This document shows positions 6,385-23,730 of a DNA stretch of 49,091 nucleotides, one piece after another. The position numbers and the translations under genes are program-made. Under the pieces are notes generated by a model. The model made no database searches. It was given only the letters and a program-made list of their open reading frames with translations, and was not told the DNA's origin. The stretch lies in sequence record DRR378314_2518. The stretch is one strand, 5' to 3'. Numbering within the stretch: position 1 is the stretch's first letter; every line of letters starts with the position of its first letter.

Positions 6385-7998
6385 TTGCAAGCAACATTTC
6401 AAGCAGTTATCGAAAAGCTTAAGCAATCGGGTAAAACAGCAGTTTGGCAGGGCATTAAGCGTGGTATTGAACGTGAAGCTTTGCGAATAAAAGAAAATGG
6501 AACGCTGGCGCCGGGTGACCATCCCCAGGAACTGGGAAAAACCCTGACCCATCCAACCATTACAACCGATTACTCAGAAAACCTACTTGAGTTCATTACT
6601 CCAGTTGCCTCCGATATTGACACAACGCTGTCACAACTCCGGGATATTCATCGGGTGGCTTATAACGCCATTAATGACGAGTTGCTGTGGCCTATGAGCA
6701 TGCCTTGCTACATTGGCTCAGATGACGATATTCGTATCGCTAAATATGGTGACTCGCACTCGGGACGTATGAAAAGCCTTTACCGTCGGGGATTAACCTA
6801 TCGCTATGGCGCTACCATGCAGGTTATTGCCGGGGTGCATTACAATTTTTCTGTGTCCGATGCGATGTGGGAAGAATTAGCGGAGATTGAAGGCGTTAGC
6901 AATAACCAGAGCTTCCGTACGGAACGCTATTTCGCTCTCATTCGCAACTTTAAACGCGTTGCCTGGGTTATTCCGTATTTGTTTGGCGCTTCACCTGCTT
7001 TGTGTAAATCGTTTTTCAGTCAGACAAAAAACGAAGAGATTCTGCAGAAGTGGGATTTTGATACGGTAGGTAAAGGCACGGTATTTTTGCCTTATGGTAC
7101 GTCGTTGCGAATGAGCGACTTAGGTTATACCAATAAAGAACAGGCAACGCTGAAAATCACGTATAACTCATTGGATGAGTATGTGACAGGCCTGCGTCGC
7201 GCAATTACAACTCCTTCTACACAGTTTTCGAAAATCGGTGTAAAAGTGGGCGACGATTATCGTCAGCTTAACGATAATATTCTGCAGATAGAGAATGAAT
7301 TTTACTCGCCAATTCGTCCTAAACAGACAGCACGCGATGGTGAAACGCCAAGCCAGGCTCTAGAGCGGGGCGGAGTAGAATATGTCGAAATTCGCGCGCT
7401 GGACGTGAACCCGTTTAGCGATGTTGGTATCACAGCACAACAAATGCACTTTCTGGACTTAATGCTTCTGCATTGTTTATTACAGCCAAGCGAAGAAATG
7501 AGCTGGGAACAGCAGCAGCAAGCCGATAAGAACTTTACTAAAGTGGTTATGCAGGGGCGTAATCCGCGCCTAAGCTTGCAGCAAAACGGCATTGACCGCC
7601 TAATGGCTGACTGGCTGGAAGAACTGTTTGCAGATTTCTCTTCAATTGCTAAAGCACTGGATAACAGTTCAGGCAATAAAGTGTATCAGAATCATTTAGC
7701 GGATTTGTACGAGTGGGTATTAAATCCGGAAAGTACGTTATCGGGCCAAATTTTACGGTTGCTCAAAGAAGAAGACCGCGATAACAGTAATTTGGGTATG
7801 CAGTTGGCTAAGCAATACCGTGAGCAATTGAAAAATGAGCCGCTCAGTTACTACAAACAAGATGACTTTGTTAAATGGGCGGCCGAATCAGAGCAAGCGT
7901 TTGAAGAACGTTATCAGCAAGACAATAACGTTGACTTTGATACGTTTCTGGCAAATTATTTCAAACAGGCGGAACGCTCTGGCCAGGTAGCTGACTGA
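6385..7998 (+). CDS. gshA: Glutamate--cysteine ligase
   Basis: RGIEREALR, ITTDYSENLLEFITP, TSLRMSDLGY, LQIENEFYSPIRPK, GVEYVEIRALD; TTG start after GGAG. Confidence 0.96.
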   Translation: MQATFQAVIEKLKQSGKTAVWQGIKRGIEREALRIKENGTLAPGDHPQELGKTLTHPTITTDYSENLLEFITPVASDIDTTLSQLRDIHRVAYNAINDELLWPMSMPCYIGSDDDIRIAKYGDSHSGRMKSLYRRGLTYRYGATMQVIAGVHYNFSVSDAMWEELAEIEGVSNNQSFRTERYFALIRNFKRVAWVIPYLFGASPALCKSFFSQTKNEEILQKWDFDTVGKGTVFLPYGTSLRMSDLGYTNKEQATLKITYNSLDEYVTGLRRAITTPSTQFSKIGVKVGDDYRQLNDNILQIENEFYSPIRPKQTARDGETPSQALERGGVEYVEIRALDVNPFSDVGITAQQMHFLDLMLLHCLLQPSEEMSWEQQQQADKNFTKVVMQGRNPRLSLQQNGIDRLMADWLEELFADFSSIAKALDNSSGNKVYQNHLADLYEWVLNPESTLSGQILRLLKEEDRDNSNLGMQLAKQYREQLKNEPLSYYKQDDFVKWAAESEQAFEERYQQDNNVDFDTFLANYFKQAERSGQVAD

Positions 7999-8005
7999 TA
8001 AACAT

Positions 8006-8036
8006 AAAAAAACGCAGCCCAAATTTGGACTGCGTT
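8006..8036 (-). terminator. Intrinsic terminator oriented for minus-strand transcription
   Basis: Minus strand AACGCAGUCCA-AAUU-UGGGCUGCGUU ending in a U7 tract; the stem has a G-U pair on the minus strand but a C-A mismatch and no U tract on the plus strand. Confidence 0.8.
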
Positions 8037-8092
8037 CAATAAAACGTTCAGGGGATGAACATGAATGCATTTATCAGCTACAACATGTGTTC
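8006..8092 (-). ncRNA. Candidate sigmaE-dependent, MicA-like small RNA (ends approximate)
   Basis: Minus-strand sigmaE-type promoter upstream and minus-strand intrinsic terminator downstream, with no credible minus-strand gene between them; UUCAUCCCCUGAA core; convergent with gshA as micA is in enterobacteria. Confidence 0.65.
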
Positions 8093-8098
8093 AATTAC

Positions 8099-8125
8099 TG
8101 AGAGTTTAACGAGTGAATAAAGTTC
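8099..8125 (-). promoter_or_regulatory. sigmaE (RpoE)-type promoter
   Basis: Minus strand GAACTT (8125-8120), 16-nt spacer, TCTCA (8103-8099); compare consensus GAACTT-N16-TCTGA/TCAAA. Confidence 0.7.
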
Positions 8126-8126
8126 A

Positions 8127-8765
8127 ATGGCGATAAAACTTTTTTTTCCTATTCAACCGAAAGTACTGGTAAGTGCTTTGTTCGTAGCGACGCTCAGTGG
8201 TTGTGCAACGCCACCGCCGGCAAACCCTGAAAATGTCTGTCATATTTTTGAAGAACACCGAGACTGGTATCATGCGGCCGCCGATGTGCGTGAACGCTGG
8301 GGCGTGCCTATTCATGTGCCAATGGCGATGATGTATCAGGAGAGTTCCTTCAAGCATAATGCTTTGCCGCCCAGAGACTACCTTTTAGGTTTTATTCCAT
8401 GGGGTCGGGTGAGTTCGGCTTACGGTTACTCGCAGGCGAAAACGATGACCTGGGAAGATTACCAGCGTGAAACGGGTAACGGTTGGGCCAGTCGCGATGA
8501 CTTTGAAGATGCAATTGATTTTATGGGTTGGTTTATAGCAAAAACCTATAAAATTAATGGGGTATCGAAATGGGACGCCTACGGACAATATCTTAACTAT
8601 CATGAAGGCTGGGGTGGCTATCAGCGTAAGTCTTATTTAAAGAAACCCTGGCTGGTAAAAGTATCTAGGGTTGTAAAAAGCCGCTCTATGACATACGCCG
8701 CGCAATTGAATAAGTGTGAGGAAGATTTAAAGCACGGCTGGCTATGGCGTTTATTTTTCGGTTAG
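8127..8765 (+). CDS. Lipoprotein with transglycosylase SLT-like domain
   Basis: Lipobox LSGC; MYQESSF catalytic-Glu-like motif, SSAYGYSQA, YLNYHEGWGGY; start codon uncertain. Confidence 0.8.
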   Translation: MAIKLFFPIQPKVLVSALFVATLSGCATPPPANPENVCHIFEEHRDWYHAAADVRERWGVPIHVPMAMMYQESSFKHNALPPRDYLLGFIPWGRVSSAYGYSQAKTMTWEDYQRETGNGWASRDDFEDAIDFMGWFIAKTYKINGVSKWDAYGQYLNYHEGWGGYQRKSYLKKPWLVKVSRVVKSRSMTYAAQLNKCEEDLKHGWLWRLFFG

Positions 8766-22528: not shown

Positions 22529-23323
22529 TCAGCTGTTTAATAAACGGGCGATAAGCTTTCTTAACGTTGCCGGTTCAAATGGTTTGTCCGTTAAGGCATC
22601 GACACCGCTTTGTTTTACGTTAGCAAGTTGTGGCTCATTGGCGCGTGCAGTCACCATGAGAACCGGAGTGTGAGCATGTGCGGAGCTATTACGAATGTAT
22701 TGAGTGAGTTCACTGCCGTTTACCTCTGGCATATGAAAGTCGGTGACGATCAAGTCAAATTGATGTTCCGCCAGAATATCAATGGCCTGCTGACCGTTCT
22801 CTGCCTCAACAAAGCTCTCAACACCCAGGTTTTCAAACACACGTCTTAAGACATGGCGCGAGGTCATGCTGTCATCAACAATCAAGACCCGTAAATCTTC
22901 TACGTCGTAAAGCTCCAGGTGAAGCGGCTCGGGTTCCATCATGTCCATGGTGGCGGTAATAGCACGCTGGAGCTGATCTGGCGTAAAAGGTTTTGGTAAA
23001 ATGGCAATAATACCCGCTTGTTTGAACTGCTCCAGCTGATCGGCACGATGTTCGGATGACACCAACATAAAATGTAAGGTATCTTTTAAATCGTTAGTGT
23101 TAATGAATTCAATGAGTTCATGTGAAGTGCCGTCAGAGAAATACATAGCGCTGGTGACAATATCGGGTTGCCAGCGAAGTATTTCTTCTTTTGCTTCAGC
23201 AATGGTTGAAGCGCCACGGGTATGCTGAATGCCCGCCTGCTTCAGGTGCTGAGTAATTACTTTTCTTTGCACATCGGAAGGTTCGATAAGCAAAATACGG
23301 AGTTCGTCAAAGGCTATTGCCAT
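22529..23323 (-). CDS. Tandem receiver-domain protein (pseudo-REC + REC)
   Basis: Domain 1 ILLIEPS...PDIVTSAMY...PKPF; domain 2 VLIVDDS...IVTDFHMP...DKPF; probable ATG at 23323. Confidence 0.85.
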   Translation of the reverse strand: MAIAFDELRILLIEPSDVQRKVITQHLKQAGIQHTRGASTIAEAKEEILRWQPDIVTSAMYFSDGTSHELIEFINTNDLKDTLHFMLVSSEHRADQLEQFKQAGIIAILPKPFTPDQLQRAITATMDMMEPEPLHLELYDVEDLRVLIVDDSMTSRHVLRRVFENLGVESFVEAENGQQAIDILAEHQFDLIVTDFHMPEVNGSELTQYIRNSSAHAHTPVLMVTARANEPQLANVKQSGVDALTDKPFEPATLRKLIARLLNS

Positions 23324-23424
23324 AATCACATAATTAGGATTTATTGTGATCGAAAGAGTAGGGTATTCAGCAGATAAACTCAATCAGAAAATCTGTGTTA
23401 TGCTCATTAAAAAAAGAGGTGAGT

Positions 23425-23730
23425 ATGAACGTTAGTCGCGACTTTTCAAATGATGGTAAGCAATTAGTTATTGCTATTAAAGGGAAATTTGACTTCAGTC
23501 TGGTACAGGAGTTCCGCCAGGCCTACAGTCATATTGGTGATTCACAGCCAACCGTAATTATCGACTTGAGGGAAACCGATTATCTGGACAGCTCTGCGCT
23601 CGGTATGCTGCTCAACATGCGTAAGTCTTTAGGCAGCAGTGTGAAAGGTATTCAACTGATTAATGCTAAACCGGACGTGCGTCGTATTCTCGATATATCC
23701 CGCTTTGATAAGATGTTTGTTATTGCCTGA
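23425..23730 (+). CDS. STAS-domain anti-sigma factor antagonist (CrsA/HsbA-like)
   Basis: KGKFDF, IDLRETDYLDSSALGMLL phospho-Ser motif; ATG at 23425 after GAGGTGAG. Confidence 0.9.
   Translation: MNVSRDFSNDGKQLVIAIKGKFDFSLVQEFRQAYSHIGDSQPTVIIDLRETDYLDSSALGMLLNMRKSLGSSVKGIQLINAKPDVRRILDISRFDKMFVIA

Follow-up and report, generated by a model that had tools for sequence, protein, structure and literature searches.

MicA (RF00078) of enteric bacteria pairs with its targets through its 5' linear region, as described in two papers (PMC4618604, PMC3551931), and a 2015 review presents it as confined to the Enterobacteriaceae, bar one partial BLAST hit (PMC4618604). A common seed, CRCUGCUUUU, is given for RybB, MicV and VrrA in a further study (PMC6694218). 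In this work, a stretch of 49,091 nucleotides (nt) from sequence record DRR378314_2518, whose host genus is Idiomarina, was analysed; it is called the window below, and plain coordinates refer to it. Behind gshA, at the position of micA, the minus strand of the window holds a conserved small-RNA (sRNA) gene with a sigma-E type promoter. With moderate confidence, we read this gene as a likely diverged descendant of the MicA ancestor, predicted to repress outer-membrane protein synthesis through a C-rich loop placed on ribosome-binding sites. A 'MicA homolog' has reportedly been described in Bordetella. For the gshA-locus RNA itself, no description was found in the openly accessible main-text literature, and a supplementary sRNA table could hold it unnamed.

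A sequence-only reading of this stretch had proposed a complete minus-strand transcription unit of the form GAACTT-N16-TCTCA, about 87 nt and U7, and its coordinates and quoted 5' sequence agree with the features of the locus:

8120..8125, minus strand: −35 box GAACTT of sigma-E type, invariant in 20 of 20 aligned genus sequences; the same form stands upstream of rpoE and rpoH in the nearest genome, G001
8099..8103, minus strand: −10 box TCTCA (TCnnA) of sigma-E type, separated from the −35 box by a 16-nt spacer; its T, C and last A are invariant
8140..8147, minus strand: A/T tract, a possible UP element, upstream of the −35 box and within the first SLT_4 codons; A- or T-tracts likewise lie upstream of the homologues and of E. 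coli micA
8006..8092, minus strand: predicted small RNA of 87 nt, its start placed by the promoter geometry of micA; homologues measure 58-87 nt
8046..8061, minus strand: conserved core UGUUCAUCCCCUGAAC, predicted to form a stem of 5-7 base pairs (bp) that exposes a UCCCC loop, the likely pairing region; column identity 89% vs 55% in the 5' part
8006..8037, minus strand: intrinsic terminator hairpin with U7 tail, a likely Hfq site; two-sided changes in 7 of 10 pairs, with all cells paired
6385..7998, plus strand: gshA, glutamate-cysteine ligase (PF04262, E 1e-168), convergent with the RNA
8127..8765, plus strand: SLT_4 transglycosylase-domain gene (PF19489, E 5e-81), divergent from the RNA, in the place that luxS occupies in E. 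coli

Read along the minus strand, GAACTT (8125-8120) is followed by 16 nt, TCTCA (8103-8099), 6 nt and G8092, a geometry identical to that of E. coli micA. The terminator hairpin spans 8037-8010 and the U7 tract 8012-8006. As had been claimed from the letters, the hairpin is more stable on the minus strand (−18.7 vs −13.1 kcal/mol on the plus strand) and has a U tract there only. The fold of the whole RNA has a z-score of −3.3, with equal stability reached in 2 of 200 shuffles. Shuffling the 128-nt gap 200,000 times produced the strict sigma-E consensus in 385 cases (0.2%), and the 49-kb window contains it twice; the other occurrence lies at 23514 on the minus strand, upstream of a response-regulator gene (22529-23383). 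A small protein is unlikely, as the sole minus-strand frame above 16 codons (26 codons) runs through the terminator.

Genome-wide checks were made on G001, of which 2.4 of 2.84 Mb were covered. In this part, the strict consensus gave 32 matches, 7 of them intergenic (45 and 2 for a reversed-pattern control). The seven include sites upstream of rpoE and rpoH, and in only two does a terminator follow, namely the gshA-locus unit and one behind polA. This genome encodes RseB as well as RpoE (71% to E. coli) and Hfq (84%); RseA and luxS had no match in the part covered.

Within the genus, the unit was extracted from 25 of 26 gshA/SLT_4 loci, the remaining locus (L017) being diverged, with a score of 31 bits on R1, a search model of promoter plus RNA built from 19 sequences, none of them enteric. 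On this model, 26 of 28 genus genomes reached 73 bits or more, 15 of the 26 having been in the training set; one genome, G022, had no match at that level. Column identity was 1.0 in the −35 box, 0.60 in the spacer, 0.83 in the −10 box, 0.55 in the 5' RNA, 0.89 in the core, 0.46 in the terminator loop and 0.97 in the U tail. Promoter boxes, the core UGUUCAYCCCYUGAA and terminator pairing are conserved, and spacers drift. In Idiomarina the core stem is closed by a G-C or G-U pair, for which two other genera have U-A. Anatomy, conservation, position and the covariation of the terminator are direct observations on this unit, and we consider it very probable that it is a real sigma-E sRNA gene.

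Beyond the genus, R1 matched in 95 of 150 family genomes. Among the 150 matches listed (five more exist), 86 are on the strand opposite to gshA at a distance of 0.3-3 kb behind it, where chance would place about 0.05. They come from 64 genomes, out of 147 for which gshA coordinates were used; these genomes include kin that are not independent, and a few of them were in R1 training. The check that the sequence-only reading had named, conservation in relatives, came out in its favour, with promoter spacing, core and terminator holding across genus and family. In 48 loci examined, 84 units were counted, with 2-7 per locus in 18 loci; the count includes two arrays twice, misses 7 known single units with a clipped boundary and covers 3 loci without units. 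Tandem arrays of 2-7 complete units fill the gshA-SLT_4 gap in named Thalassotalea, Colwellia and Litorilituus records (L136, L146, L170, L185, L191, L194, L198, L199, L209), and the array of T. marina combines five near-identical copies with two other types. In 13 of the 84 units, those proximal to gshA in the arrays (L185:2883-2982 and equivalents), UCCCUGG is followed by ACUGCUUU, a part of the RybB/MicV/VrrA seed. A scan for tandem promoters gave 118 stretches; among the 80 listed, 10 lie at gshA/SLT_4, and most of the others listed are in unrelated phyla and presumably due to chance. Tandem sigma-E type units were also observed away from gshA (L145, L147, L178, L182, L093, L104, Succinivibrio and Paraglaciecola among them), and G223 carries six matches to the unit within 6 kb (C1:953-7051) at a locus other than gshA.

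Across the order, units were found behind gshA in families f2, f4, f23 and f26 and adjoining SLT_4 in f18; most of the 20 single family representatives lacked a unit. The gene order gshA-SLT_4-luxS is present in 4 of these 20, and one of the genomes, G110, has a unit between gshA and SLT_4. In two other families, represented by L348 (G038) and L362 (G110), sigma-E type units whose body is poor in C and rich in U occupy the gap behind gshA, and G038 has two of them in tandem. Because the order gshA-SLT_4-luxS occurs in other families, luxS and SLT_4 would have been lost differentially. This suggests an ancestral order gshA, RNA, SLT_4, luxS, corB, from which SLT_4 was lost in enterics and luxS was lost from the locus in the Idiomarina family. 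Separately, the Rfam MicA model scored above its cut-off in all four genomes of family f10 (L035, L036, L038, L039), which lies outside the family of the E. coli-like genomes.

Several comparisons connect the RNA with MicA itself. On the E. coli chromosome (NC_000913.3), micA was the only match of R1 (40.3 bits, E 3.7e-4, with stricter filters), and RybB scored 17 bits on this model. The bodies of 10 homologues, compared pairwise, gave p 0.003-0.075 against MicA and p 0.14-1.0 against RybB or CyaR, and several members contain an 11-nt stretch identical to micA. In the reverse direction, a MicA-built model, R3, ranked the gshA unit first genome-wide in 2 of 5 genomes, G117 (E 2e-5) and G218 (E 0.04), and intermediate forms score 30-39 bits on it. 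The E. coli motif AUCAUCCCUGAA, named in the sequence-only reading, is indeed present in micA. The predicted fold resembles that of MicA in its arrangement of two stem-loops, a U-rich linker and a U tail, but its first stem is formed from different partners and shows no two-sided change in the genus.

Other results weigh against descent from a MicA ancestor, and against the reading as a whole. On further genomes with MicA, R1 matched micA weakly in two (E 0.03 and 0.6) and gave no match in two more. With R2, a model of the RNA only, micA goes undetected. R3 fails on the unit of the window, whose 5' part is longer, and in genome-wide searches on the units of G001 and G020; in G004, the gshA unit ranks second (E 1.35). 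Within Idiomarina, two-sided changes are absent from the 5-bp core stem. The Rfam check proposed in the sequence-only reading was negative: RF00078 (gathering threshold 41 bits) gave no match at E up to 10 on the window stretch and none in 11 loci, and among 151 genomes it matched 8, from two other families only and none of the 8 searched from the family of Idiomarina. Membership of the Rfam family was rejected, and such matches as Rfam did give on the window stretch were sub-threshold and terminator-like. The MicA 5' seed GACGCGCA is absent; the 5' part is 55% conserved and of variable length, and only the 3' end of the region is common to both RNAs. The neighbour divergent from the RNA is SLT_4 and not luxS. 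Likeness to MicA, as proposed from the sequence, was thus borne out for position, promoter geometry and core and failed for Rfam membership and 5' seed, with the common core used differently.

The promoter together with a C-rich core is not unique to the gshA locus, since R1 gives the unit behind polA 48.7 bits, more than it gives micA, a further point on the negative side. This second promoter/sRNA/terminator unit lies directly behind polA (L105:1501-1613, equal to G001:C1:30363-30475, plus strand) and has the core UGUUCUCCCUGGA. Matches of its kind, at 43-61 bits, are present in 28 of 28 genus genomes, with the position checked in G001 only. No Rfam family matched it. Its core is predicted to pair without a bulge to porin and receptor sites, and it is likely a redundant partner of the gshA-locus RNA.

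In the mechanism that we propose, envelope stress would free RpoE, and transcription of the RNA would start at 8092. Hfq would bind the U-rich 3' end, and the UCCCC loop would nucleate on Shine-Dalgarno regions of the CAGGG(G/A) type, with the weak stem opening and pairing extending over the start region of mRNAs such as those of a DcaP-family porin and some TonB-dependent receptors. Translation of these porin and receptor mRNAs would then fall, lightening the envelope load. In G001, the porin in question is at C1:2148978, and the genes at 1251257, 1255158 and 2292738 have candidate receptor leaders. We slightly favour this targeting of outer-membrane protein ribosome-binding sites by the loop.

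Accessibility of the loop is consistent with it: the CCC has an unpaired probability of 0.75-1.0 in 9 homologues (0.34 in MicA), and 38 of 77 units have it inside a hairpin loop, compared with 12.3±2.8 in shuffles. For target prediction, 2164 genes were called in the G001 part with a home-made caller. The outer-membrane set comprised 21 Plug-domain receptors and 17 heuristic barrels, 2 of which were dropped as false; 8 of 12 checked have a Pfam family. In the leaders of this set, the most enriched of all 1024 5-mers is CAGGG, to which the core is complementary (7 of 36 vs 70 of 2128). The core duplex reached an area under the curve of 0.60 vs 0.44±0.05 in shuffles, with none of 60 shuffles matching the core. 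Furthermore, CAGGG occurs in 8 of 58 receptor leaders of four other genomes (compared with the G001 background), and GGGAGAACA lies over the ribosome-binding site of the DcaP-family porin in 5 of 6 Idiomarina species. This porin-leader site, GGGAGAACA, is also found in the rpoE leader of G001 (C1:873321 region), and both sigma-E units are complementary to it; feedback through such pairing is conceivable.

The counterweights on the target side are of several kinds. The p value of the CAGGG enrichment, 2e-4, is unadjusted. In the control genome G042, which has no unit at gshA, CAGGG is equally common in receptor leaders (3 of 23); a promoter pattern scan found no sigma-E RNA elsewhere in it, and it may still hold some. 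For G218, the matching change would be CUAAGGG, and none of 20 leaders has it. Few outer-membrane proteins are among the predicted targets with the best energies, the raw ranking by duplex energy being dominated by strong ribosome-binding sites. These genes may use CAGGG as a variant ribosome-binding motif of which the RNA takes advantage, or the motif may have no connection with the RNA. One candidate target, ompW, was rejected: of the 6 species compared, G001 alone has the full 8-nt match, and this site, placed between a putative −10 box and the probable start downstream of an FNR-like box, is unlikely to be transcribed.

Three other accounts of the locus have to be set against these results. 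A generic anti-Shine-Dalgarno C-rich RNA, for example a copy of the polA unit, could occupy the same gap as a real sigma-E sRNA that does not descend from micA. The failure of R2 and Rfam on the MicA relation, the missing MicA 5' seed, the polA unit that outscores micA on R1 with a similar core and the different, C-poor bodies at gshA in two other families all fit such an origin. It sits poorly with the same gap, strand and orientation recurring across families, with the 11-nt identity and the greater similarity of the bodies to MicA than to either RybB or CyaR, and with the intermediate forms at 30-39 bits on the MicA-built model; we regard it as unlikely. The sequence-only reading had spoken of a distant homologue or a positional analogue, and synteny, the R1 match to micA and pairwise similarity lean towards the homologue, a mere positional analogue being less favoured. 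Common descent with micA is, in our judgement from these comparisons, quite probable.

Selective conservation of the core, and arrays whose cores have diverged, fit pairing in trans, and the outer-membrane enrichment survives shuffling. These observations make us doubt, a little more strongly than in the previous case, that a real sigma-E sRNA has its main targets elsewhere, either in another gene set or in cis on the SLT_4 leader or gshA read-through RNA, as proposed for MicA and luxS. What speaks for such targets is the same CAGGG rate in G042, the failed covariation in G218 and the layout of the locus. With 1 nt between the SLT_4 start codon and the sRNA −35 box (8120-8147), the leader of SLT_4 necessarily runs across the sRNA promoter; on the strand of gshA, no U-tailed terminator follows that gene. 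In E. coli, luxS mRNA overlaps micA (PMC2956633). It is very improbable that no sRNA exists at all and that the hairpin merely ends read-through from the minus-strand ypjD-corB operon, with an incidental promoter match. The stops of corB and SLT_4 do overlap, at 8762-8765, and this overlap leaves no room for a terminator after corB; against this account stand the invariant −35 box, fixed spacing and conserved core, the arrays that repeat promoter, core and terminator as one unit, and several relatives that lack both the unit and almost any gap. Downstream of SLT_4, corB and ypjD are followed by a gene that we take, from its sequence, to be ffh, and positions 1-56 of the window hold the 3' portion of a tRNA that the window edge truncates.

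Returning to a sigma-E sRNA of MicA ancestry with outer-membrane targets, the gene would be new, that is, an undescribed and unannotated sigma-E type sRNA gene, probably a MicA orthologue that has diverged and altered its way of pairing. Idiomarina genomes encode 18-32 TonB-dependent receptors, and in such receptor-rich marine bacteria the gene may provide the envelope-stress response with an RNA arm. Its presence would also make the micA locus far older. A wider scenario is tentative, and we lean against it at present: a sigma-E sRNA gene would already have stood in the gshA gap of the ancestor that enterics share with marine Alteromonas-like bacteria and have stayed there ever since, MicA of enterics would be the derived form with its seed moved to the 5' end, and the marine C-rich loop would read a CAGGG-type code on porin and TonB-receptor mRNAs, with repeated amplification to arrays of up to seven that include units with a MicA-type core and a RybB/MicV-type seed. 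If true, two sigma-E seed families would be linked at one locus. Movement, duplication and divergence of sRNA seeds can be followed in the natural series that this fixed locus offers, with its single copies, arrays and changed cores.

Among known systems, ErsA of Pseudomonas aeruginosa is reportedly under an envelope-stress sigma factor. Both control by such a factor and repression of a porin mRNA are features of ErsA that are predicted for the Idiomarina RNA, which differs in that no Rfam ErsA match was found in the window stretch or 11 loci. By its locus, ErsA may correspond to the polA-locus unit rather than to the gshA-locus unit. The porin mRNA repressed by ErsA is oprD (PMC5819304). Pf1 of Pseudoalteromonas was considered and set aside as a Csr RNA that is unrelated. 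C-rich anti-Shine-Dalgarno loops are known from CyaR and other sRNAs, and an exposed C-rich loop directed onto ribosome-binding sites is likewise predicted here; CyaR differs in its regulator, and there is no sequence similarity to E. coli CyaR (p 0.14-0.99). RybB, MicV and VrrA belong to the same class of sigma-E dependent sRNAs that repress outer-membrane proteins. Their seed is absent from the window RNA and its genus homologues, RybB reaches no more than the 17 bits given above, and the 8-nt part of the seed in 13 of 84 gshA-locus units belongs to other genera.

With MicA, the Idiomarina RNA shares convergence with gshA, divergence from the next gene, sigma-E promoter geometry, the UCAUCCCUG core, the U-rich linker, terminator and U tail, and a similar size. 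It differs in lacking the 5' GACGCGCA seed and an Rfam match, in having SLT_4 as neighbour instead of luxS, and in the predicted placing of the CCC of UCAUCCCUG in a C-rich loop (unpaired 0.75-1.0 vs 0.34 in E. coli MicA). Furthermore, about 18 extra 5' nt are present in the clade of the window, and tandem arrays occur in relatives of Idiomarina. Without being filed as a member of the MicA family, this RNA would work like MicA and probably shares its ancestry.
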